Positions 1 through 11,579 of a stretch of 29,018 nucleotides of DNA are shown one piece after another. Under the pieces are notes generated by a model. That model made no database searches. It was given only the letters and a program-made list of their open reading frames with translations, and was not told the DNA's origin. The position numbers and the translations under genes were made by a program. This DNA is from Thermoproteota archaeon (GTDB lineage Archaea > Korarchaeota > Korarchaeia > Korarchaeales > Korarchaeaceae). Position 1 is the stretch's first letter. The number at the start of each line of letters is the position of its first letter. The stretch covers positions 1 through 29,018 of the forward strand of contig JAOZGP010000010.1 of NCBI GenBank assembly GCA_027491735.1. The letters run 5' to 3'.

Positions 1-1220
1 GCATAGGGTTTGCAGAACTTGGACATGAAGTAATCTTTGTAGACATAGATAGAGCTAAAATTGAAGCTATAAACAACCTTAATCCACCGATATACGAAAG
101 AGGTCTCGATGAGCTGATGAAGAAGAACAGAGGTAAATTCTACGCCACAGACGATTATAGAGAAGCTATAGCTAACACCGAAATAACGTTCATCTGTGTC
201 GGAACACCATCAAGAGAAGACAGTTCTATAGATCTAAAATATGTCAAATCAGCCGCTGAAAGCATTGGAAAAGCTCTTGCCAGCAAGGAAGATGTTCATG
301 TTGTAGTAGTTAAAAGCACAGTCATCCCAGGAACTACAGAAGGTGTCGTGAAGCCGATAATCGAGAAAGAATCCGGCAAGGAAGCGTTCAAAGATTTTGG
401 TTTAGCAATGAATCCCGAGTTTCTCAGGGAAGGGAACGCTGTTGAAGATTTCTTCAATCCTGATAGGATAGTAGTTGGTGTCAGAGATAACAAAACTAAA
501 TCGATCTTGGAAGAGATATATAAGCCGTTCAGCTGTCCGAAACTTTTCACTGACATAAAGACGGCTGAGATGATCAAATACACTTCAAACGCTTTTCTTG
601 CCACCAAGATTTCATTTGCTAACGAAATAGGAAACATATGCAAAAAATTAGGCATAGATGCCTATGAAGTATTTAAGGGCGTTGGACTTGATCACAGAAT
701 AAACCCCTCATTCTTCAGAGCTGGTATAGGCTTTGGTGGAAGCTGTTTTCCCAAAGATGTTAAAGCCTTAATCACGAAAGCTGAAGAACTTGGTGAAAAT
801 CCAAAACTGCTGAAAGCAGTGATAGAAGTAAACGAAGAGCAACCCTTAAAGTTAATTGAGCTGCTGAAGAAACACGTTCCAGACTTGAAGGGTAAAACAG
901 TTGGCGTGCTTGGCTTGTCCTTCAAACCCGACACCGATGATATTAGAGAGAGCAGAGCAATACCTATTGTTAGAATGCTACTCAACGAAGGTGCCAAAGT
1001 GGTTGCATACGACCCGAAAGCAATGGAGAACTTCCGGAATATATTTCCCCAGGTTGATTATGCCTCGTCTGCCGAAAAAGTGCTTGAAGCCGACGCAGTT
1101 TTGATAGTCACAGAATGGGAAGAGTTCAAAAACCTGGACTACAAGGGAAGAATAGTTATTGATGGGCGACGGATCGAAAAAGCAAAAGAAGCTGCTGTTT
1201 ATGAGGGAGTGTGCTGGTGA
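1..1220 (+). CDS. ugd: UDP-glucose 6-dehydrogenase (5'-partial; gene starts upstream of the window)
   Basis: Frame is open from base 3 (IGFAELGHEVIFVDID...), upstream of the ORF-track ATG. Motifs FICVGTP, KSTVIPGTT, NPEFLREG, AEMIKY, catalytic GFGGSCFPKD and GLSFKPDTDDIRES. Confidence 0.95.
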   Translation, partial: IGFAELGHEVIFVDIDRAKIEAINNLNPPIYERGLDELMKKNRGKFYATDDYREAIANTEITFICVGTPSREDSSIDLKYVKSAAESIGKALASKEDVHVVVVKSTVIPGTTEGVVKPIIEKESGKEAFKDFGLAMNPEFLREGNAVEDFFNPDRIVVGVRDNKTKSILEEIYKPFSCPKLFTDIKTAEMIKYTSNAFLATKISFANEIGNICKKLGIDAYEVFKGVGLDHRINPSFFRAGIGFGGSCFPKDVKALITKAEELGENPKLLKAVIEVNEEQPLKLIELLKKHVPDLKGKTVGVLGLSFKPDTDDIRESRAIPIVRMLLNEGAKVVAYDPKAMENFRNIFPQVDYASSAEKVLEADAVLIVTEWEEFKNLDYKGRIVIDGRRIEKAKEAAVYEGVCW

Positions 1221-2056
1221 TGAAAGTCAAAAAGGCTGTAATTCCTGCTGCAGGTTATGGAACGAGAATGTTACCAATAACAAAAGCCCAGCCTAAGGAA
1301 ATGGTGCCTGTTGTTCACAAGCCAGTTATCCAGTATGTGGTGGAGGAAGCATATTACTCTGGGATCAGAGATATCCTTATTATAACCGGAAAGGGTAAGA
1401 GAGCTATTGAAGACCACTTTGACAGAAGCGACTTACCAAAGAAGGATAAGTACGTAGACGAGCTTGACAGAATTCTCGAAGAAGTTGATATATTCTTTGT
1501 GAGGCAGAAAGAACAAAAAGGGTTAGGTGATGCTGTTAGATATGCAGAATCCTTCGTTGATGATGAACCATTCGCTTTGCTACTTGGTGATACTATTACC
1601 TTTCCACCTTGTACCAAAGAACTGATCCACGCATATAACAGATACAAAACGTCTATTATTGCAGTTGAAGAAGTACCCACAGAGAGAGTCAGTCTGTACG
1701 GTATTGTAGCATGCAAAGAGATCGAAAATAACGTTTATCTGATAGAAGATTTGGTTGAAAAGCCAAGTGTTGATGAAGCTCCATCGAATCTAGCGATCCT
1801 AGGTAGATATATACTAACACCGGAGATTTTTGATTGTATCCATGAAACTAAACCTGGCAAGAGTAACGAAATACAGCTTACAGATGCGCTGAGAATACTG
1901 AATACAAGAGAAAAAATGTATGCGTATCTGTTTAAAGGCAAGAGGTACGACATAGGAAACAAGCTGGACTGGCTCAAGGCAAATATCGAGATGGCGTTAG
2001 AGGATGAAGAAGTCGGGAAAGAGATAAGGGAGTTTATCAAGTCGATGGGGGTTTAA
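1220..2056 (+). CDS. galU: UTP-glucose-1-phosphate uridylyltransferase
   Basis: KAVIPAAGYGTRMLPITKAQPKEM, QKEQKGLGDAV, VEKP, GRY, EIQLTDAL, YDIGN motifs. The ATG at 1220 overlaps the ugd stop (TGATG coupling). Confidence 0.95.
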   Translation: MKVKKAVIPAAGYGTRMLPITKAQPKEMVPVVHKPVIQYVVEEAYYSGIRDILIITGKGKRAIEDHFDRSDLPKKDKYVDELDRILEEVDIFFVRQKEQKGLGDAVRYAESFVDDEPFALLLGDTITFPPCTKELIHAYNRYKTSIIAVEEVPTERVSLYGIVACKEIENNVYLIEDLVEKPSVDEAPSNLAILGRYILTPEIFDCIHETKPGKSNEIQLTDALRILNTREKMYAYLFKGKRYDIGNKLDWLKANIEMALEDEEVGKEIREFIKSMGV

Positions 2057-2057
2057 G

Positions 2058-3101
2058 ATGTCCAGCAAAGATGTTGTTCGGGAAGGAGTAGATGAAATCG
2101 TCAGAAATCTCGGAGAAATAAGCTTCGAAGACCAGACTGTGCTGATAACCGGTGGAGCTGGTTTCCTCGGTTCCTGGATATGTGATGTGCTTGTCAGGCA
2201 GAATGCAAGTGTAATCTGTCTGGATAACTTCGCGAGTGGTCTGGAGAGCAATGTTGCTCATTTGATGAATCATGAAAATTTCACGTTTGTCAGGCACGAT
2301 GTTTCCCAGCCAATATATTTCGACGATGAAAGGATAGATGTCGTCATGCATTTGGCTTCGAGAGCATCCCCTTTGGAGTTTAACAAATTCCCCATACAGA
2401 TTATAAAAGCAAACACGCTTGGCACGTGGATTGCGCTTGGCATAGCAAAAAAACATAATGCGAGACTCCTTTTCACGTCAACCAGCGAGGTTTATGGTAA
2501 TCCTGAAATCGTACCAACTCCTGAGACATACAATGGAAACGTGAATCCGGTTGGTATAAGGGGTTGCTATGATGAGGCGAAAAGAGCTGGAGAAGCGATG
2601 TGCATGGCGTATATGAGGCAACATGGTCTGGATGTCAGGATTGCCAGAATTTTCAATACGTATGGGCCAAGGATGAGAGCAGATGGTGTATACGGAAGAG
2701 TAGTTCCAAGATTCATTACTCAAGCTTTGAATAACGAACCGATTACAGTGTTTGGAGATGGTAAGCAGACGAGGAGTTTTTGTTATGTGACAGACCAAGT
2801 TGAAGGTTTGCTAAGATTGGCTTGGTTTGATGACTTAAGAGGGGAAGTGATAAACATAGGTAATCCAAACGAGATTACAGTACTGGAGCTGGCTGAGATT
2901 ATTAGGAGAATTGCAAACTCAAATTCCGAAATTAAGTTCTACCCTCCAATGCCTGACGACCCAAAAAGAAGATGTCCTGACATAACCAAAGCCAAGACTC
3001 TCCTAAGATGGAGACCTAAAGTTGGGCTTGAGGATGGATTAAGGAATACTGTAGAGTGGTTTAGAGATGTTTTCAGTAATTTTACAGGATACAGTAAATA
3101 G
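2058..3101 (+). CDS. uxs: UDP-glucuronate decarboxylase (UDP-xylose synthase), extended SDR family
   Basis: ITGGAGFLGS, HLASRASP, STSEVYG, GCYDEAKR (YxxxK), RIFNTYGPRM, GKQTRSFCYV, DDPKRRCPDI are the UXS signature set. Confidence 0.9.
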   Translation: MSSKDVVREGVDEIVRNLGEISFEDQTVLITGGAGFLGSWICDVLVRQNASVICLDNFASGLESNVAHLMNHENFTFVRHDVSQPIYFDDERIDVVMHLASRASPLEFNKFPIQIIKANTLGTWIALGIAKKHNARLLFTSTSEVYGNPEIVPTPETYNGNVNPVGIRGCYDEAKRAGEAMCMAYMRQHGLDVRIARIFNTYGPRMRADGVYGRVVPRFITQALNNEPITVFGDGKQTRSFCYVTDQVEGLLRLAWFDDLRGEVINIGNPNEITVLELAEIIRRIANSNSEIKFYPPMPDDPKRRCPDITKAKTLLRWRPKVGLEDGLRNTVEWFRDVFSNFTGYSK

Positions 3102-3112
3102 GAGGGAGTAAA

Positions 3113-5182
3113 CTGAATCACGGATCAAAAATATTTAATTTTTATGTATTGACATATTTAGTTATTGCATCTATAGGAGTAATTTCATTTTTATCTAATA
3201 AATATCTATTTCTTTTAGATTTGAATCCAATATTAAACAGTTATAGAGTATTAGAACCATTCTACGGAAAATATACTCCTGTAAGTGGTGGTCTGCCTGT
3301 CAATTTAATATCAGCTATCATCCCAGCAGAACTCTTTCAAAAAATTATGCTCTTCCTCATACTCTTTTTAAGTGGATATTCGATGTACAATTTAGCCAGT
3401 AAGTTTACATCATCAAAGACAGCCCAATTTTACGCTGGTTTGTTATATATGCTTAATCCTTACACATACATCAGGATAGTCGTCGGGCACTGGCTGATAT
3501 TATTTGCATATGCTATTTTTCCGTTAGCAGTTAGATATTTTTTAGAGTTACTGGACAAGAAGGATTTAAGAAGTATAATAAAAACAGCTTTAATAGCTAC
3601 TCTTGTAGCATTCAATGCCCACACTCTTTTCATAGCATTTTTAATCTTCTCAATTCTTTTCTTATTCAGACTCTGCAAAGATAAATCAATCAACCTGATA
3701 AAGCCCATCGCAATAGCTTTTGCTCTCTTCATAGCGTTAAACACATACTGGCTCATACCTCTATTCACAGCCCAAAAAGAAACGATACTATCTCACATCT
3801 CATCGGAAGACCTTGCAGTCTTCGCTCCTCGCATAGAATCGGTCTCAGCGCTCTTCACTCTTGCAAGCATGCATGGATTCTGGAGACCCGGCTACATCTA
3901 CGCTAAAGACTTTCTGCCGTTTTGGTGGATTTTATTTGTCTTCATTCTATTCTTGGCAGTTCACGGTTTTGTCTCATACTACAGACACGAAAGGCTTGGA
4001 ATTTACGTCAAAGCTTTTGCAGTAATCTGGCTTGTAGGCTTAATCTTAGCGGCTGGAATAAGAAGTCCTTTTGCAGATTTCTTCAAATTTCTCTTTGACC
4101 ACATACCCTTAATGAAAGGAATGAGAGATACGCACAAGTTCGTGACAATGCTATGCTTATCATATTCCTGCTTGGGAGCTTTAGGCTTAGCTGAAATAGA
4201 GAAAAGCTTGGAAAACAAAAAACTGTTAAAGAAAGCTGTAATCTTAGCAATTCTGCTTGTTCCCTTAATATATTCTTTCACGTTCTTCAACGGATTTGCT
4301 GGTCAAATAAAGCCAACTGACTACCCAAATGACTGGTATAAAGTTAATGAGTTCCTGAACAAGGATAAAGACGATTTTAGAGTTCTATTCTTCCCATGGC
4401 ATCTCTACATGGACTTTCACTGGGTACCTAACAAGGATAAGCGCATAGCAAATCTCGCACCCCTCTTCTTTGATAAAGAGATTATTTCAGCTAAAAACAT
4501 CGAAGTTCCCGGAATATACAGACAGATGTATACTCCCTACCAAGTCTATATCGACTATCTCCTAAGCAAAAGAAACGAAATAACGAACTTCGGCGAACTT
4601 GTAAGCATTTTGGGCGTCAAATATATTTTGCTGACAAAGGAAGTAGACTATAAAAACTACTTCTTCCTGTTCAACCAAACAGATTTAGAATTGGTAATGG
4701 AAACAGAAAAGTTCTACGTATTCAAAAATAAGGCGTTTAAGGGCTTAATATTTTCGGTGGACGGAATTGCATACGTCAAAAACTGGGACGAGCTGATAAA
4801 CGTAAGCAAAATGGAAGACATAACTAAGAGACTGTATTTAATCGGCGACGGTAAGGAAGAAGGGAACGAAAGTTACAAGAGACTTAAATACGAGAAAGTC
4901 AGTCCAGTAAAATACGTTATCAAAGATGAACCCTTGAAATACATTATTTTCACAGAAGAATACTCCAAAGACTGGAAGCTTAATGATAGGGAGCCTATGA
5001 AAGCTTATGGTGTTGTTAATGCTTATGTTGTGCCTGAACTACCCACACCAAGTGAAATAGTTTACGAGAGGTTCCACAAAATTTGTTTACCTTCCTACGT
5101 TGTATCTATTATGACTTTTCTGGGATGCATTGGATATTTATTCTATGACTGGAGAAGGGAAAAAAGGAGATGGATAGGCTAA
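3113..5182 (+). CDS. Polytopic membrane protein, GT-C-like (AftD/YfhO-like) putative glycosyltransferase
   Basis: Many hydrophobic segments, AGLLYMLNPY motif, MRDTHKF loop, soluble region with FRVLFFP and LGVKYILL, and a C-terminal TM with a basic tail. The frame is open back to a CTG at 3113 behind GGAGGGAG; the ORF-track start is TTG 3149. Start uncertain. Confidence 0.65.
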   Translation: MNHGSKIFNFYVLTYLVIASIGVISFLSNKYLFLLDLNPILNSYRVLEPFYGKYTPVSGGLPVNLISAIIPAELFQKIMLFLILFLSGYSMYNLASKFTSSKTAQFYAGLLYMLNPYTYIRIVVGHWLILFAYAIFPLAVRYFLELLDKKDLRSIIKTALIATLVAFNAHTLFIAFLIFSILFLFRLCKDKSINLIKPIAIAFALFIALNTYWLIPLFTAQKETILSHISSEDLAVFAPRIESVSALFTLASMHGFWRPGYIYAKDFLPFWWILFVFILFLAVHGFVSYYRHERLGIYVKAFAVIWLVGLILAAGIRSPFADFFKFLFDHIPLMKGMRDTHKFVTMLCLSYSCLGALGLAEIEKSLENKKLLKKAVILAILLVPLIYSFTFFNGFAGQIKPTDYPNDWYKVNEFLNKDKDDFRVLFFPWHLYMDFHWVPNKDKRIANLAPLFFDKEIISAKNIEVPGIYRQMYTPYQVYIDYLLSKRNEITNFGELVSILGVKYILLTKEVDYKNYFFLFNQTDLELVMETEKFYVFKNKAFKGLIFSVDGIAYVKNWDELINVSKMEDITKRLYLIGDGKEEGNESYKRLKYEKVSPVKYVIKDEPLKYIIFTEEYSKDWKLNDREPMKAYGVVNAYVVPELPTPSEIVYERFHKICLPSYVVSIMTFLGCIGYLFYDWRREKRRWIG

Positions 5183-5229
5183 AAAGTTAAAAAGAGGATT
5201 AAAGAGATTCTAGGAATTAGGTGAGTTGA

Positions 5230-5474
5230 ATGGAGATAGAATTTACAAACCACGCAAGAGACAAATTTCTAATTCTGGAAAGGCATGGTTTTCGAGTGAG
5301 TGAGGAAACCGTGTTAAAAACTGTTAAAGAACCGGACAAAATAAAGGCTGGTAGAAAAGGTCGGTTAATTGCACAGAAGGCAATGGATGAGGGACATTTA
5401 TGTTGTATACGAAGTAAAAGGTGACAAAGTGATAATAGTTATATCCAGCGAGGAGGGACAGATATGAAGATTAA
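5230..5474 (+). pseudogene. DUF4258 (RelE/BrnT-like) toxin, doubly frameshifted
   Basis: MEIEFTNHARDKF... continues in a second frame from 5402 (VVYEVKGDKVIIV) and a third from 5442 (YPARRDRYED*, stop 5472-5474), overlapping the antitoxin start. Confidence 0.75.
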
Positions 5475-5679
5475 ATATGATAGAGAAGTGGACATACTTA
5501 TGATAGAACTCTCTGACGAAAAAATAGATTACGCTGAGGAAGCCGGACCTATGATAATACATTTTAAAGATAACAAACCAGTGTTAATAGAGATCCTCGA
5601 CGCAAGTGAATTTCTTGCAGAACTGACAAAAATATCCATGAAAAGCACAGGCAGAGAGGCAGTAGAAGTTAAAACATAA
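5464..5679 (+). CDS. DUF2283 family protein, putative antitoxin
   Basis: MKIKYDREVDILMIEL...PVLIEILDAS pattern; usual downstream partner of DUF4258. Confidence 0.85.
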   Translation: MKIKYDREVDILMIELSDEKIDYAEEAGPMIIHFKDNKPVLIEILDASEFLAELTKISMKSTGREAVEVKT

Positions 5680-5682
5680 CTT

Positions 5683-5870
5683 GAATGGGAGTTAAGGTTT
5701 TTACAAAATGACAAAATTGTCGAATCAATTCTTCTGTATTCTGTTATTAGTTTTTGGATGACGAGGCAACGAGACACAACTTCAAAGCCGAGTATTTAGA
5801 TGTTGCCAAGCTCAGGAAAAGGAGGCTAGCTAAAAGTTGAGGAAGGGATGAAGAAGATCTGGAGATTCGG
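5683..5870 (+). pseudogene. Degraded 3'-end remnant A of a GT-C-like membrane gene paralog
   Basis: From 5683 it reads EWELRFLQNDKIVESILLYSVISFWM, which aligns with WEVRIYKDGKLVEKVRSIPLYSVINGF of remnant B. Bases 5815-5858 resemble the tail at 5157-5208. Confidence 0.55.
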
Positions 5871-5884
5871 AAAAAGTTTATTAG
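5871..5884 (+). promoter_or_regulatory. Archaeal BRE/TATA promoter for the UPF0175/DUF3368 pair
   Basis: AAAAAGTTTATTAG, followed by an SD-like GGTGA at 5911 and ATG at 5920. Confidence 0.55.
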
Positions 5885-5919
5885 TCATCTCACATTGATT
5901 TTTTGTTATAGGTGATGAA

Positions 5920-6168
5920 ATGATAACCATACCGGAAGACGTGCTCGCTTCCATGAAGCTGCCCGAAAAGGATAGAGAGAGGATCTTAAAGGTAGAGTTA
6001 GCCATAGCCCTTTATCAGAGGGGGGTTCTGTCCATTGGCAAGGCAAGAAAACTTGCTGAGATGAGCAAATGGGAGTTCATAGAAGAACTTGGCAGAAGGA
6101 AAATCGAAAGGCACTATACAGAGAAGGAACTTGAGGAGGATATCGCCTTTGCAAAAGGTAGTAAGTAA
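5920..6168 (+). CDS. UPF0175 family antitoxin
   Basis: ELAIALYQRGVLSIGKARKLAEMSKWEFIEELGRRKI...YTEKELEEDI is the UPF0175 pattern. Confidence 0.9.
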   Translation: MITIPEDVLASMKLPEKDRERILKVELAIALYQRGVLSIGKARKLAEMSKWEFIEELGRRKIERHYTEKELEEDIAFAKGSK

Positions 6169-6637
6169 TTCTTCACCACTCATCCATCTATCAAAAATCT
6201 CGAGATTAAACCTGCTGAAAGACTTTTTTAGCGAAGTAATTGTTCCGGAAGCTGTTTATAAGGAGTGTGTCGTTGAGGGCGGAGACAGAGATGATGCAAG
6301 AAAAATTGCGAAAGCGAAATGGATCAAGGTTCTAAAAATAAGGGATGAAAAGCTCAAAAGAGCTTTCATGATGGAACTTGATGAGGGTGAAGCTGAGGCA
6401 ATAGTGCTTGCCTTGGAAGAATCTGCCGATCTGATCCTTTTGGATGACTATGAAGCAAGAAGAGTGGCCAGGAGTTTTGGATTGAGCGTTACCGGAACAG
6501 TAGGTATTTTAATCAGGGCAAAGCGTGAAGGTAAAGTAGAGAGTTTAAAGGATGAGATTGAAAAGCTTATGAAAACAGGATTCTGGTTAAATAGAGAATT
6601 GTATGAAAGAATACTGGAAGAGTCGAGGGAGTTATAG
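6149..6637 (+). CDS. DUF3368 PIN-domain (VapC-like) toxin
   Basis: Likely TTG start at 6149 (VVSNSSPLIHL), overlapping the antitoxin. Motifs VPEAVYKE, LDEGEAEAI, LLDDYEAR, GTVGILIRAK. Confidence 0.9.
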   Translation: MQKVVSNSSPLIHLSKISRLNLLKDFFSEVIVPEAVYKECVVEGGDRDDARKIAKAKWIKVLKIRDEKLKRAFMMELDEGEAEAIVLALEESADLILLDDYEARRVARSFGLSVTGTVGILIRAKREGKVESLKDEIEKLMKTGFWLNRELYERILEESREL

Positions 6638-6695
6638 GCAGGCAGAATAAATCAACGTCAATAGGAACAATTAATTAATATAGAATAATAAAAAA

Positions 6696-7100
6696 ATGCT
6701 CCCAGATATGACCTGGTTCCTAATCCAATACAAAAACAACACTCTGGAAAGTCAACGCCACGAACATTTCATGCTCTCATTTGTCGAAGCATACGATCCT
6801 CTATGGGAAGTCAGAATATACAAAGACGGTAAACTGGTAGAAAAGGTTAGATCCATTCCATTATACTCGGTTATAAACGGATTCTGAATCAATGAAACTG
6901 GAGAACTTGGAAATAGTAATCAGATATACACCGTAAGATTTGTTTGAAATCGGTTTAATGATTTCTGCAACAACCTTCATAGGTTGCATTGGTTACCTAT
7001 TCTACGAATGGAGAAGAGAAAGATGGATGGGTTAAGAAGATTGAGGAAAGGCTAAGAATGTTCTTGAAGAGAATTTACCGAAAAATTAAAACCATTTAAT
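6696..7100 (+). pseudogene. 3'-end remnant B of a GT-C-like membrane gene paralog
   Basis: FMLSFVEAYDPLWEVRIYKDGKLVEKVRSIPLYSVINGF*INETGEL / EIVIRYTP*DLFEIGLMISATTFIGCIGYLFYEWRRERWMG*. The end matches TFLGCIGYLFYDWRREKRRWIG* of the 3113-5182 gene. Contains internal stops and frameshifts. Confidence 0.8.
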
Positions 7101-7115
7101 CGTTAACTAAACGAG

Positions 7116-7320
7116 ATGGAAAGAGTGTACGAGCTTTTTCAAAAACTCCCGGATGAGCTCAAAAGAGAGGTTATAGACTACAATAGAGTTCTTATTAGAA
7201 GAGAGATCAAAGAAAAAAAGAGGACAGCTTAGCTTATCATGGAAAGGCGCTCTGAAAGAGCTGAGAGATAAATACGCATCGGTGGAACTCCAGCATAAAG
7301 CTCTTGAATGGTGGGACTGA
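7116..7320 (+). pseudogene. DUF2281-type antitoxin, one +1 frameshift (absent from the ORF track)
   Basis: MERVYELFQKLPDELKREVIDY / IEFLLEERSKKKRGQLSLSWKGALKELRDKYASVELQHKALEWWD*, with an extra A near 7182. ATG TAT TTG at 7321 looks like the MYL start of a lost PIN toxin. Confidence 0.75.
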
Positions 7321-7322
7321 AT

Positions 7323-7596
7323 GTATTTGATGTATTCCTTCAGGCGGTAGAAGGGCATCGAGTTAACCCTCCTGTTCACTTCCCTCCCTTGCCGTTGTCT
7401 CTGACGCCGTCTAAGTTTCCCATAGCGATTATTGCATTGTGCCTCCCAGCTTCATCAACGACTTCCTTTGCTATCCTGTGCAATTCATCGTTCACGATTC
7501 TTCTCTCCTTATGACCAATTTTTCCTTATCGCCCTAAGTTTCTTCTCTCTCCCAAGCTTCCTTCTCAACCAGAAATACCTTCCACGAACCTCCCTC
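7323..7596 (-). mobile_element. tnpB: IS200/IS605-family tnpB internal fragment (pseudogene)
   Basis: The minus strand reads across two frameshifts as REVRGRYFWLRRKLGREKKLRAIRK / IGHKERRIVNDELHRIAKEVVDEAGRHNAIIAMGNLDGVRDNGKG / VNRRVNSMPFYRLKEYIKY, the helical and RuvC-II region of TnpB. Confidence 0.8.
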
Positions 7597-7601
7597 TGGA
7601 G

Positions 7602-7657
7602 GGAATCCCCAGCCGTGCTGGAAGATGCCCTCTATTTTAATGGAGGGAAGAGGTCAC
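7602..7657 (+). mobile_element. IS200/IS605-like right-end hairpin
   Basis: GGAATCCCC...GATG-CCCTCTATT-TT-AATGGAGGG-AAGAGGTCAC: a 9-bp stem (one G-T pair) at 7628-7647 followed by GGTCAC, resembling archaeal tnpB element ends. Confidence 0.5.
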
Positions 7658-7788
7658 GGAATATTTCCGAACGACTTTGTCCATATTACATTTAGATTTA
7701 GATTGTATTGTAATAGAAGGGCTGTGCATCCTCTGCATGTATGATTACTGTCACGATGTCATAATACTCTTTCCCCTTAGCCCTCATT

Positions 7789-9471
7789 TCATTTCTTGCT
7801 GCGTATGGAAGTACCTTCACAGACTTCCCGTACAGCTTCAAGGTACTTCATCCCGTATTCTTCTGATGGTTCTATGCTGGTATACTCATGCCACTCGTTG
7901 AAAGATGTTATTATAACGATCTTATGAGGCCAGGAATAGCTGAGGGCTATCCTCAACTGTTCCTTAAACCTATCAATGCTCCTCGGCAGCGGTATGTTCC
8001 CGGACCTCACAGCCCGGTCGTCAAAGCCTGGTATGGCTGAAGGGATGAAGTCCACCCTCTTAGTCCTCAAGAAGGTATACCACTCGCTGTATTTTTCTCT
8101 GAGCCTCTTCTCGAAGTTGTTCAGTATGCCGGGCACGCTTGTGTGCATGTTGTATGAGGTCACCCCATCGAAATACCGGACAACCTGTGAGGTCTCAGAG
8201 GGGCTCTGCCAGTACACCAGGTCCCCCAGCAGGTAGAACCCGTACCTCCTTCCGCACTCATGTATTGCCTTCAGGGCGCTTCTCGGCAGTGTTCGTGCCA
8301 AGTAGATCTCCACCACCGGCTTGCCGTTTATCCTTAGGTAGCGAGGGTCTCTGGAGTAGGTCCTGTTCAGGTAGCTGAAGTCCTCCTCAATCACCTTTTC
8401 GGCCTCGTTCAGGCTCAGACCTCCTATCCTGCCGGTGATCTCGTAGAGCACAGCGAACCTCATGCTTTTCGCCAGGGGGTTTTCCAGCATGTGGTTCTTA
8501 AGGGTCAGATCTTCGTAGCTCCCGGGACCCCACCAGCTGACTATGAAGAAGTCTATTCCATGTCCCGTTGCCCAGTCTATGTGCTTGGAGATCACTACCG
8601 GGTTTCTAGAGTCGTACTCGCCTAAGAGAGGCTTGCCCGTATATCCCTCGTCCCAGTGTCTTCCGATGCCGTACCAGGGGTAGTAATGGGCGCCAATGAG
8701 TACACTGTCCAACCTGGCCATATTCTCATATTCCCTTAGGTACGTGGTTCGTATCGTCTTCACCTGCGTGTTTCCAGCAGAATCCCTAACCTCAACTCTT
8801 ATCTCATATTCTCTACCACCAGCAAAGCCGGATACAGTGACAGAGAACTTCTCCCTTAGATCTCCATAGCTACCGTCTAATGGTGTTAGGTTGAAAGTCC
8901 TTATCTTCTCCTCTGGAAAAGCCTCGCTTGGAAGATTTTCGTAGTTGATGGGGATCCATGTAAGGACCGCAGAGACTATTGGATTACAGGAGTCCTCGGC
9001 TTCAAATGACACGGTGACCTCATATACCTTCTCGTTCATCACCTTAGACGGAGCCCACTTCAATCCTTCAATTACAAGAGCTGTAGGGTTAGCGTACTTG
9101 TCCCTCAAGAAGGAGAGCTCATCCCTCGTTATCCCACCATCCGCGGTCACTTGGTCTAAGTCCTCCAGGAAGTTCTTGCTGCTCGTCACGCTGGATGGTA
9201 GGGAGGCCACCAGGTTCACAAGCCTCACATCCATTGGATCTAATCGACCGTCCAGTCCTAGAGGCGCAAAGTGCTGGGAGAGCTTTTCCAGACCTTTCCT
9301 CCTCACGTATTCCAACACCGGGTTGACGCTGGACGAGGTCCTCCTCTGTGATACGTTTTGGGAGGTTTCCCTTGTTGAGGCAGGGTGTGGTCCTCCCGCC
9401 CATCGAAGCATGAGGACCACAAGAACAGCTAGGACGACAAGCACGGATAGACGTAAGAGAGGCCTCCTCAT
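7789..9471 (-). CDS. Membrane-anchored glycoside hydrolase, GH99/GH71-like (endo-alpha-mannosidase-like)
   Basis: N-terminal TM, Ser/Thr linker, beta-rich middle domain, then AHYYPWY, PLLGEYDS, HGIDFFIVSWWG, PGFDDR and ITSFNEWHEYTSIEP (GH99 ExxE motif). Confidence 0.8.
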   Translation of the reverse strand: MRRPLLRLSVLVVLAVLVVLMLRWAGGPHPASTRETSQNVSQRRTSSSVNPVLEYVRRKGLEKLSQHFAPLGLDGRLDPMDVRLVNLVASLPSSVTSSKNFLEDLDQVTADGGITRDELSFLRDKYANPTALVIEGLKWAPSKVMNEKVYEVTVSFEAEDSCNPIVSAVLTWIPINYENLPSEAFPEEKIRTFNLTPLDGSYGDLREKFSVTVSGFAGGREYEIRVEVRDSAGNTQVKTIRTTYLREYENMARLDSVLIGAHYYPWYGIGRHWDEGYTGKPLLGEYDSRNPVVISKHIDWATGHGIDFFIVSWWGPGSYEDLTLKNHMLENPLAKSMRFAVLYEITGRIGGLSLNEAEKVIEEDFSYLNRTYSRDPRYLRINGKPVVEIYLARTLPRSALKAIHECGRRYGFYLLGDLVYWQSPSETSQVVRYFDGVTSYNMHTSVPGILNNFEKRLREKYSEWYTFLRTKRVDFIPSAIPGFDDRAVRSGNIPLPRSIDRFKEQLRIALSYSWPHKIVIITSFNEWHEYTSIEPSEEYGMKYLEAVREVCEGTSIRSKK

Positions 9472-9647: not shown

Positions 9648-11579
9648 ATGTCCAGCAGAGGAACGAGGAAGACGGGTAAAAAACAGAGAAAATCGTTTGG
9701 GCCCGTGGAAAGTCTTGAGGAACACGTTCCCTCTGACTGGTGGAGACGGATATTCAACTCCATCTACCTCAAGACGGATGGCGACGTCGTGAACAACCCA
9801 TCGATCACGAAGAGGGAGGTGGATCTCTTCACGAGGGTCCTCAAGCTATCCCCTGAGGACAGGGTGCTGGACCTTTGCTGTGGTCACGGAAGGCACACGC
9901 TCGAGCTAGCGAGAAGAGGCTTCAAAAACGTTGAGGGTTTGGATATCTCCCGCTACCTTGTGCAGAAAGCAAGATCTCAGGCCAAGAGGGAGGGACTCAG
10001 GATCAGATTCAGGATCGGTGATGCCAGGAAGCTGCCCTATCACGAGAACGCCTTCGATGTGGTCATGATCCTGGGGAACAGCTTCGGCTACTTCGAAACA
10101 ATTGAGGAGGATATGAGGGTTCTAAGGGAGGTCTTCAGGGTCCTCAAGCCCTATGGGCGGATCCTCATAGACGTTGCAGATGGGGAGTACTTGAGGGAGA
10201 ATTTTAAGCCGAGATCCTGGGAGTGGATTGATAGAAAGCACTTCGTCTGTCGTGAGCGATCCCTTTCACTCGACAAACAGCGCCTGATCTCAAGGGAGAT
10301 CTTCACTCATATCGAGAAAGGAGTTGTTGTCGATCAGTTCTATGCTGAGAGGCTTTACACACGGGAAGGTTTGAAGGAGCTTCTGGAAAGAGCAGGTTTC
10401 AGTGATGTCACCTTCCACGGAGCTATCACCTCGGATTCGCAGAGAGGTCAGGACCTCGGAATGATGGAGAAAAGAATTGTGGTGACTGCTATCGTGAGAA
10501 AAGATTGGAAACCGACTGTGAAGCAAAGAAAAGAGCTGAAGACGATCGTTGTGATCTTAGGCGATCCTACAAAAAGGGATCCCGTCAAGCCAGGGCAGAT
10601 CTTCGATGACGATGATCTCCACACGATCAGCAGATTGAAGGAGGCCTTGAGGGAGCTTGAGCCTAGGGGTTACAGGTTCGTGTACCTCAACAACCACAGC
10701 ACTTTGATCCACGATCTGATGAAGCTAAAGCGGATAGATCTCGTCTTCAACCTATGTGATGAGGGCTACAACAACGATCCGAGGAAGGAGCTTCATGTCC
10801 CGGCCTTGCTGGAGGTCCTCGGCATTCCATACACAGGAGCCCCACCACACTGCCTGGCTTATTGCTACGACAAGATGCTCGTTAGAAGCCTTGCGATGAA
10901 CATGGGGATTCCTGTGCCGTCTACATATGTCATCGAGCCAGGAACCATCTCATTCGAGATACCCTTCGAGTTTCCGGCCGTGGTGAAGCCGAACTTCGGG
11001 GATTCCAGTTTTGGAATAACGCAGAGGAGCGTGGTGAACAGCGCAGAGGAGCTTCTTAACGCGATCTCGGAGATCAGAGGTAGATTCGGTTACGACAAAC
11101 AGATCCTCGTCGAGGAATTTCTGCCCGGAGATGATCTAACGCTGGGGATAATAGGCAATCCCCCCGACGACTACGTTGTCCTTCCCATCACTAAGGAGGA
11201 CTACTCGTCGCTTCCGCCGGAGCTCCCGAAGATATGCGGGTATGAGGCGAAGTGGTGTCCACACTCCCCTTACTGGAACATAAAATCTGTTTCAGCTGAC
11301 CTTCCGGAGGAGGTCGAGAGGTTCATCGTTGAGTGCAGTCTGAAGCTCTTTGAGAGGCTTGAATGCAGGGACTACTGCCGATTTGATTGGAGGATTGACT
11401 CGAAGGGAAAGCCAAGGCTTTTGGAGGTGAACCCAAATCCCGGATGGTGCTGGGACGGACACCTCGCAAAGGCAGCAGGGATTGTGGGCATCCCCTACTC
11501 CGAAATGCTGGAAATGATACTGAGGACCGCCATGAGGAGGTTGAATTCGGGCGGAGGTGTTGCAGAGGAACCGAGATGA
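9648..11579 (+). CDS. Class I SAM-methyltransferase fused to a D-Ala-D-Ala-ligase-like ATP-grasp domain
   Basis: N-half: VLDLCCGHGRH, GDARKLPY, ILGNSFGYF, VLKPYGRILID. C-half: DLVFNLCDEG, LGIPYTG, DKM, VVKPNFGDSSFGI, LVEEFLPG, RFDWR, LEVNPNPG. Confidence 0.85.
   Translation: MSSRGTRKTGKKQRKSFGPVESLEEHVPSDWWRRIFNSIYLKTDGDVVNNPSITKREVDLFTRVLKLSPEDRVLDLCCGHGRHTLELARRGFKNVEGLDISRYLVQKARSQAKREGLRIRFRIGDARKLPYHENAFDVVMILGNSFGYFETIEEDMRVLREVFRVLKPYGRILIDVADGEYLRENFKPRSWEWIDRKHFVCRERSLSLDKQRLISREIFTHIEKGVVVDQFYAERLYTREGLKELLERAGFSDVTFHGAITSDSQRGQDLGMMEKRIVVTAIVRKDWKPTVKQRKELKTIVVILGDPTKRDPVKPGQIFDDDDLHTISRLKEALRELEPRGYRFVYLNNHSTLIHDLMKLKRIDLVFNLCDEGYNNDPRKELHVPALLEVLGIPYTGAPPHCLAYCYDKMLVRSLAMNMGIPVPSTYVIEPGTISFEIPFEFPAVVKPNFGDSSFGITQRSVVNSAEELLNAISEIRGRFGYDKQILVEEFLPGDDLTLGIIGNPPDDYVVLPITKEDYSSLPPELPKICGYEAKWCPHSPYWNIKSVSADLPEEVERFIVECSLKLFERLECRDYCRFDWRIDSKGKPRLLEVNPNPGWCWDGHLAKAAGIVGIPYSEMLEMILRTAMRRLNSGGGVAEEPR

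Follow-up and report, generated by a model that had tools for sequence, protein, structure and literature searches.

The window analysed here, a stretch of 29,018 nucleotides (contig JAOZGP010000010.1 of the Korarchaeaceae assembly GCA_027491735.1), carries an intact gene for an AftD-like GT-C membrane protein that is followed downstream by three different toxin-antitoxin (TA) modules with two decayed gene-end copies interposed, everything on the plus strand. This alternation of gene ends and TA modules, which an initial annotation made from the sequence alone had described, is confirmed by profile searches (E = 0.0011 for the upstream copy, remnant A, and E = 2.7e-77 for the downstream copy, remnant B), and the stretch exemplifies an architecture that recurs in Archaeoglobales-like hydrothermal-vent archaea. 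The repeated element, hereafter the module, is approximately 330–400 bases long and consists of the last ~110 codons and a short tail of large AftD-like GT-C membrane proteins; the genes between two copies are referred to as a cassette. We propose, with a probability of roughly 0.6, that homologous recombination at this conserved gene-end module inserts and shuffles the cassettes, and that TA pairs gather there and then erode.

The intact gene (677 amino acids, 3149–5182, plus strand; the start at 3113 given initially is not a listed start codon) belongs to the family PF11847 (GT-C_AftD), its residues 56–437 aligning with profile positions 66–455 of 661 at 38.8 bits (cut-off 26). The protein also resembles the NCBIfam MmpA family trehalose lipid delivery protein (E = 2e-42, 145.5 bits), under the cut-off of 210, and has 115 homologues at E ≤ 0.001. 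It represents a first gene type of ~680 residues (type 1), next to which a longer paralogue of 950–1400 residues (type 2) is found. Type 2 is tied to GT-C solely by tblastn with the type-1 protein, e.g., at locus L021 with 28% identity over 372 residues (E = 1e-26), and full-length type-2 proteins gave no Pfam or NCBIfam match. When ten type-2 proteins of at least 900 residues are compared, the body is typically 20–40% identical, some pairs being alignable over a few residues only, whereas the last 110 residues are typically 57–84% identical, with lower values for pairs that include the outlier L052. The terminal module is the most conserved portion of otherwise very divergent proteins. This conservation acts at the protein level: in 20 intact tails, 51–67% of sequence pairs use different codons for an identical residue, whichever 10-codon window is taken, and the value does not fall at the anchor, i.e., synonymous sites show no conservation across the module.

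The tail of the intact gene (5071–5204, plus strand) corresponds to the 3′ part of the terminal module with the membrane anchor TFLGCIGYLFYDWRRE. It matches the type-2 profile in nhmmer at E = 9e-14 over profile positions 210–344, and the homology extends 22 bases beyond the stop codon, so that the end of the gene is itself a partial module copy. The window gene and its closest type-1 homologues finish in the type-2 anchor and tail (…GCIGYLFYDWRRE…), whereas distant type-1 proteins, e.g., those of Methanocaldococcus, have other ends. Type-1 genes are often situated just 3′ of a type-2 gene or of type-2 remnants (L081, 2095–6077; L053, 8004–10432; L033; L043), so that type-1 genes may be cassettes in their own right, with module copies as their borders. 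Homologues of the intact protein with 60–75% identity are present in Geoglobus and Methanocaldococcus, which suggests gene transfer among hyperthermophiles.

Remnant B (6730–7099, plus strand), recovered by both nhmmer and tblastn, is a pseudogene fragment comprising the last ~110 codons and the tail of a type-2 gene. A profile built from 98 copies matches 6737–7057 with the E-value given above, the match over 6730–7083 has E = 7.9e-78, and a DNA profile from six copies of another genome recovers 6765–7070 at E = 3.4e-68 over the 1.36-Mb genome to which the window belongs. Full-length type-2 proteins align by tblastn with 6768–7032 at 72–85% amino-acid identity across an in-frame TGA at the W of NGFW, a TAA at a Q and frameshifts near 6760, 6905 and 7016. 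The tail of remnant B (6958–7032) shares 18 of 27 residues with positions 651–677 of the intact protein (E = 4.5e-7), which bears out the earlier remark that the two end alike, and tblastn with the 115 type-1 homologues returns this anchor tail only (17 proteins at E ≤ 7e-5). By these alignments remnant B is certainly a GT-C gene-end copy.

Remnant A (envelope 5683–5795, aligned 5708–5775, plus strand) is accepted, less surely than remnant B, as a probable short and decayed middle piece of the type-2 terminal module that lacks the membrane-anchor end; it had been placed at 5683–5870, of which the alignment supports only ~70 bases. The profile of 98 distinct copies, all of them from outside the window, scores it at 16.4 bits (E = 0.0011 genome-wide), making it the third-best match in the genome after remnant B and the intact tail, on the correct strand, and the next match has E = 0.83. 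It falls below significance with the six-copy DNA profile (4.9 bits, E = 5.6) and with a 15-sequence protein profile (6.7 bits, E = 18 over 49,691 frames), and tblastn with the intact protein or its 115 homologues gives no match to it. A protein hidden Markov model of 97 full-length type-1 homologues scored below 7 bits throughout the six frames of 5183–7800. Copies of similar extent occur elsewhere, as in L019 at 6481–6562.

The motif noted initially as common to both remnants and different in the intact gene is real, since both remnants are type-2 modules and the intact gene is type 1. To judge from the alignments, the remnants derive from a type-2 paralogue whose terminal module is also carried by the tail of the intact gene; they are not, as had been suggested, displaced older ends of the intact gene, to which the longer paralogue is ~35% identical over the same segment. 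An alignment of 64 bases between the intact tail and remnant B shows 75% identity and no exact common core, and DNA profile searches of the whole genome found no module copies beyond this locus. The view that the array is not a simple tandem duplication is supported.

By family matches and intact frames, TA2 is a type II TA pair of the predicted families: a UPF0175 antitoxin of 82 residues (5920–6168, plus strand; PF03683, E = 8.9e-28, 96.2 bits, cut-off 27.9) overlaps at 6161–6168 with a PIN-like DUF3368 toxin (6161–6637, plus strand; PF11848, E = 1.7e-16, 60.2 bits, cut-off 27.3), relatives of which are found in L019, L024 and L050. The other two of the three modules, TA1 and TA3, are broken. 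TA1 had been read as a DUF4258/DUF2283 pair, and the DUF2283 partner holds (5464–5679, plus strand, 71 residues; PF10049, E = 2.9e-13, 50.2 bits, cut-off 23), but an intact DUF4258 toxin gene is not present: the first gene, a presumed toxin (5230–5467, plus strand), is read in two frames with a frameshift near 5400, neither piece has a Pfam or NCBIfam match, and PF14076 is absent from the genome search. A related organism's contig (run X1, depth 2.7), ~92% alike over 5202–5566 (28 differing letters and 10 gaps in 365 bases), has 4 extra bases at 5401–5403, where the first gene of TA1 changes frame.

TA3 retains a DUF2281 antitoxin (7116–7320, plus strand), frameshifted near 7230 and matched by PF10047 in two pieces in two frames (E = 3.9e-6, 27.8 bits; E = 0.0024, 18.9 bits), and its PIN partner is missing. 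The PIN stub described earlier does not stand, as the homology with L024 (78.8% identity between 7086–7331 and L024 8377–8628) stops at 7331, approximately three codons into the toxin. The counterpart in L024 consists of intact DUF2281 (8416–8631) and PIN (8618–9013) genes behind a module copy, and remnant B together with DUF2281 is collinear with L024 7998–8628 at 69% identity over 635 bases. In place of the TA3 toxin, a 157-base element (7322–7478) begins exactly at the expected toxin start; it is 99.4% identical to an intergenic sequence of the window's genome (contig C36, 77052–77207), and contigs of runs X1 and X2 carry 7322–7390 in other contexts. This element overlaps a 49-codon TnpB (IS200/IS605 accessory) fragment (7379–7525, minus strand), whose matches to the NCBIfam families guided_TnpB (1.9e-5) and TIGR01766 (2e-5) fall short of the cut-offs; the fragment has no Pfam match, and PF01385 is found in the window's genome on contig C18 only, not on this contig. 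The earlier statement that no recombinase is visible in the window is accordingly right for tyrosine recombinases, the sole PF00589 match of the genome being on contig C27, and has to be amended for the TnpB fragment at the array edge. Because two of the three TA modules are broken, stabilisation by TA pairs, as proposed for this locus, could at present rest on TA2 alone.

The generality of the layout was assessed on contigs of metagenome-assembled genomes (MAGs) and metagenomes found by module scans. As the loci were retrieved via the module, the figures describe module-bearing loci and not genomes at large; we excluded L017, a part of L019, and 18 metagenome loci that have an exact 120-mer in common with a MAG locus. 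After this, 100 non-duplicate loci with 163 module copies remained; all but one of the copies (162) are co-oriented with the seed match, and 28 loci contain 2–8 copies, 91 in total. Seven of these 91 array copies are long, i.e., they extend upstream of profile column 400, and the other 84 are short remnants. A common 3′ end, at column 700 or beyond, is shared by 76 of the 84 remnants; their starts are ragged with peaks at columns 475–499 (15 of 84) and 675–699 (12 of 84), which coincide with the onset of inter-allele conservation and with the membrane-anchor core, respectively. Spacing from end to end has a median of 1008 bases, with 39 of 62 values within 700–1400. On an uncultured Archaeoglobaceae MAG contig (L017/L019), eight co-oriented copies, separated by small gene pairs, span 9.6 kb, and arrays without an intact head gene also occur (L040, L024). 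The copies in arrays are 5′-truncated pseudogene fragments of different alleles with a common 3′ end; in a tree of 165 columns, whose low resolution makes this a hint only, copies within one array are not mutual closest relatives.

Cassette content was determined from 104 non-overlapping open reading frames (ORFs) of at least 45 residues located between the copies of ten array loci. Among the best 25 of the 55 Pfam families matched, PIN is the most frequent (16), followed by AF2212-like (8), the MNT-type nucleotidyltransferase families Polbeta and NTP_transf_2 (6 each), HEPN (4), DUF433, UPF0175 and DUF3368 (3 each), PIN_2, HepT and TumE (2 each), and VapB and DUF2281 (1 each). Most cassettes are, to judge from these matches, type II TA pairs; larger genes between copies are few and comprise sugar-nucleotide genes (L040), a GT-C gene, an AlbA_2 protein and an archaeal ATPase. 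By comparison, the 45 ORFs within 1.6 kb downstream of 19 intact type-1 or type-2 genes that stand alone encode glycosyltransferases and unrelated proteins, and the best 25 of the 75 families they match include no TA family. TA pairs therefore go with the extra module copies and not with the gene itself, and the expectation that homologues of the membrane gene are generally trailed by TA pairs is not borne out. In L024, two copies of a small membrane-protein gene (2674–3083 and 4107–4512, 79.5% identical over 410 bases) flank a minus-strand PIN/antitoxin pair (3279–3924); these repeats are not GT-C ends, so the repeat-TA-repeat pattern may be wider.

Loci that differ at a module provide the evidence for recombination. 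L040, from an Archaeoglobus sp. MAG, has orthologues of the UDP-glucose dehydrogenase (ugd), nucleotidyl transferase (ntp) and epimerase/dehydratase (epi) genes of the window in the same order (82.5, 85.8 and 75.0% amino-acid identity), followed directly by a module remnant and a different four-copy array with no intact GT-C gene; relatives differ, as had been anticipated, in the number and identity of their units. The metagenome contig L082 matches the L040 array with 99.1% identity along 7,367 bases; the match breaks off at module column ~440, upstream of which L082 has an intact type-2 gene of 1059 residues and L040 has ugd-ntp-epi. The differences between the two are concentrated at this junction (33 of 63 in the first 250 bases, the sequences being virtually identical after ~160 bases), and the L040 copy is therefore a chimera of two alleles.

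A wider set of locus pairs with at least 96% identity over at least 600 bases contains 11 pairs in which homology ends inside both sequences; 8 of the 15 internal breakpoints are in or at the edge of module copies, at columns ~340, 440, 559–574, 642 and 740, and the other 7 are outside. One of these pairs, L044/L132, probably repeats L039/L044, since L132 shares an exact 120-mer with a MAG locus. Variable breakpoints inside repeats and chimeric repeats, as expected of exchange by homologous recombination, are thus both observed, and the breaks of near-identical strains inside modules support the initial suggestion of recombination at the conserved end of the gene. TA cassettes are also shared between loci with differing neighbours, at 87% identity between L029 and L040 and 88% between L024 and L040, and a third is common to L029, L050 and L053; recurring cassettes are mostly 86–96% identical, and the flanking modules ~50–78%. 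The TA2 cassette of the window (5900–6760) recurs ~95% alike in contigs of a second study, with both flanks unlike the window and the right loose end near the 5′ edge of the module, an observation made on contigs only that cover a small share of the sampled words. Public runs contain at most 0.14 of the sampled words of the stretch, all in relatives' contigs, and no contig in them spans the array or joins two modules; the sole joint listed, 4977 to 5116, has a side of 32 bases at 88% likeness. A DNA search of 36 genomes of the same family with 5183–7800 returned TA2 relatives (67–73% identity), one TA1-like piece and a 54-base match in genome G042.

In the mechanism that we favour, the module would serve as a homology arm because it is conserved across lineages. 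DNA of the form module-cassette-module could be exchanged between arrays by a double crossover in two modules. Recombination between neighbouring direct repeats would also release a circle of one module and one cassette, which could re-enter any module by a single crossover; the head gene would stay intact, and the array would gain the cassette together with a displaced truncated copy. TA pairs would accumulate because loss of a cassette by recombination between its flanking repeats would be penalised by the toxin, and pairs as well as module copies would later erode, as TA1, TA3 and both remnants in the window have done. The peaks of remnant starts at the onset of conservation and at the anchor core would also favour homologous crossovers at these positions. 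By contrast, the initial idea of glycan allele swapping via the 3′ end is only partly supported: the copied part is the most conserved region of the protein (57–84% identity compared with 20–40% for the body), and swapping it would not alter glycan specificity. The initial annotation had also named in advance three outcomes as fatal to its reading, i.e., no alignment for remnant A, an invariant arrangement in relatives, and an origin by decay of full-length paralogues; the data went the other way in each case, as remnant A aligns, the arrangement varies and paralogue decay is disfavoured.

Several observations weigh against homologous recombination at the module. No circular cassette and no plasmid-borne or viral module copy turned up: the viral collection contains no relative of the module, and the plasmid collection has one 37%-identical match only, under a Halobellus gene annotated as a DMT transporter. 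Module copies that are only 50–80% alike are a poor substrate for homologous recombination, and the peaks of remnant starts at columns 475–499 and 675–699 hint at preferred sites. TA genes under selection and neutral remnants diverge at unequal rates even under vertical descent, so that part of the pattern of like cassettes with unlike flanks could be due to differential decay or loss; identities of 77.6% at the nucleotide level over the sugar genes of the window and L040, and of 79–81% over DUF2281 of the window and L024, fit vertical inheritance. The window's own array is found in no closely related genome, the 36 same-family genomes containing no orthologous array, and a genome-wide self-comparison of the window's genome revealed no other TA pairs flanked by gene-end repeats, returning otherwise paralogous domains (ABC ATPases, CDC48, etc.) and a periodic region on contig C27. 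Finally, all data are MAG or metagenome contigs.

Site-specific recombination, with an attachment site in the module and an integrase acting in trans (integron-like, Xer-exploiting, or by serial integration at a gene 3′ end), would account for the common orientation of 162 of 163 copies, the common 3′ ends of 76 of 84 remnants, the cassette-sized median spacing of 1008 bases, the two remnant-start peaks (columns 475–499 and 675–699) and type-1/type-2 chimeras that are joined at the membrane-anchor core. We nevertheless regard it as unlikely. No integrase is present among the best 25 of the 55 families matched by the 104 inter-copy ORFs, where single weak matches may be hidden, the single PF00589 match of the window's genome is on C27 and not on this contig, and that of the genome of L040 (G053) is on a stretch that does not match L040. 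There are no attC-like inverted repeats and no Rfam match in 5000–7900, synonymous sites are unconserved throughout the module, near-identical strains break at five different module positions, and no exact core is shared, the intact tail and remnant B being 75% identical over 64 bases.

Elements that integrate at the 3′ end of a tRNA or protein gene duplicate the attachment site, share an exact core and have, or once had, an integrase; such integration restores the end of the target gene and leaves displaced 3′ fragments downstream, and repeated events yield a co-oriented series. The arrays resemble these elements in the co-oriented series of displaced fragments behind a restored gene end, but differ in having no exact core, no integrase, divergent alleles and units of ~1 kb; no direct repeat of at least 14 bases links the intact tail and remnant B. 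The resemblance to integron arrays consists in the one-directional row of ~1-kb cassettes with a repeated element between them, the frequent TA cargo and the shuffling between arrays. However, the repeat is a coding gene end of 330–400 bases where attC is an imperfect palindrome of 60–150 bases, breakpoints are spread along it, and its copies are often truncated. No IntI was found, the single PF00589 match in the genome being on C27 and none being among the listed inter-copy families, and an inverted-repeat search of 5100–7400 gave 3 weak inverted pairs only, with arms 341–1533 bases apart. Clusters of attC sites without an integrase occur in Archaea too, according to parts of one report (PMC9668308).

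Ordinary decay appears improbable; in this reading, deletions would have reduced tandem full-length GT-C paralogues to stubs, TA pairs would have entered a permissive island of fast turnover by independent insertions, and the arrays would since have been inherited vertically with differential loss. Tandem GT-C paralogues do exist (L021, L022, L031, L033, L043 and L081), two of the three TA modules in the window are broken, the identities between the window and L040 and between the window and L024 fit vertical descent, and bacterial TA pairs cluster in high-turnover spots and erode, as described in parts of PMC13617665. The decay of full-length paralogues is, however, disfavoured because 84 of 91 array copies are short 3′ remnants, just the last ~400 bases of 3–4-kb genes persisting, and no N-terminal or middle gene pieces are found between cassettes. 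Up to 8 copies at ~1-kb spacing, lone GT-C genes without TA neighbours, and a chimeric copy together with the replacement of a gene by a cluster between strains 99% alike likewise argue against it. The same parts of PMC13617665 describe bacterial TA islets (Photorhabdus) as small spots of high turnover, often without mobility genes and with toxin pseudogenisation, for which spread by homologous recombination at flanking genes is proposed. The arrays agree with this view of TA pairs as acquired, streamlined and eroded; a repeated gene-end module between TA pairs is not described in those parts of PMC13617665, and the layout seen here adds a visible boundary element.

Least probable of all, in our estimate, is that the 3′ part of the module is retained upstream of a TA pair as a promoter or terminator while the rest is trimmed by deletion, which would explain the shape of the remnants and not their origin: common 3′ ends with variable 5′ starts agree with it, as do the L019 copies 748–845 and 3702–3796 (84.8% identical from the tail through the spacer into the first codons of the next gene) and an AT-rich TTTATAAA-like box, which we take to be the archaeal TATA consensus, ~25 bases ahead of the start of that L019 gene, but some cassettes are opposite to the module strand (L019, 4676–5358; L024, 9820–10564; L040, 10390–10967) and the 3′ end is missing from 8 of 84 copies and from remnant A. 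A scan for sigma-70 promoters, with a bacterial model unsuited to archaea, gave 5 sites with 5.4 expected, i.e., chance level, and a terminator scan was likewise at chance.

Homologous recombination at a conserved stretch is also the mechanism proposed for swapping in Rhs/CdiA orphan arrays, in which a full-length gene is accompanied by displaced variable C-terminal toxin fragments, each with its cognate immunity gene. An intact head gene followed by 5′-truncated end copies with a small gene set behind each is common to both systems, but in the present arrays it is the conserved anchor module that is displaced, with self-contained TA pairs unrelated to the module between the copies; displaced variable toxin ends with immunity genes were not found. 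The proposed entry and exit of circles through one homology arm resembles the archaeal pop-in/pop-out procedure used in the laboratory, in which a single crossover of a one-arm circle creates direct repeats around the insert and recombination between these removes it. In the pdif modules of Acinetobacter, XerC/D sites occur in inverted orientation, often with TA pairs between the repeated sites; TA pairs between repeats are a common feature, but the repeats are XerC/D sites there and a gene-end module here. We know of no natural example of either that uses a gene-end module, and the full-text literature searched, a scope that mostly excludes subscription journals and supplements, yielded no account of archaeal gene-end copies in alternation with TA pairs.

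We put forward more tentatively, and as something that may well prove wrong, that the terminal module of AftD-like GT-C genes is a portable homology arm which, with its cassettes, would form an integrase-free platform, an archaeal functional analogue of integrons, used by selfish TA pairs and occasionally by glycan genes to spread across archaeal lineages in hydrothermal habitats, with TA addiction guarding new duplications. If the module does act as a homology arm, it would represent a simple, enzyme-free route of cassette capture in hyperthermophilic archaea and would link selfish TA elements to hypervariable surface-glycan islands. Since cassette boundaries are marked by gene-end copies, single events of gain, loss and exchange can be read from the sequence, and near-identical strains already display such events. 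The module profile provides a search handle for arrays, having recovered 28 multi-copy loci among 100, and gene callers will list many small 'hypothetical membrane proteins' that are module remnants. For bacteria, parts of PMC13617665 raise as unsolved the way in which TA pairs spread to chromosomal sites and become established there when no mobility genes are visible.

The array is part of a low-GC island that occupies positions 1–7500 of the window, with a GC fraction of 0.33–0.44 compared with 0.50–0.58 for the remainder of the contig. The sugar-nucleotide part of this island consists of the ugd gene for UDP-glucose dehydrogenase (3–1220, Pfam E = 2.5e-58), the nucleotidyl transferase gene ntp (1211–2056, E = 1.3e-35) and the NAD epimerase/dehydratase gene epi (2058–3101, E = 7.4e-53), all on the plus strand. 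The GC shift of the island is located near the TnpB fragment and a convergent GH99/WbsX-like gene (7789–9471, minus strand). Further downstream, an ORF of 643 residues (9648–11579) combines a SAM methyltransferase domain (residues ~60–180) with an ATP-grasp domain of the D-Ala-D-Ala-ligase type (residues 439–625). The periodic region on contig C27 of the window's genome (G000, 50300–58900) comprises 8.6 kb that match themselves at many offsets with ~64% identity, the offsets appearing to be multiples of ~64 bases; candidates for its identity are a tandem-repeat gene and a very long CRISPR-like array.

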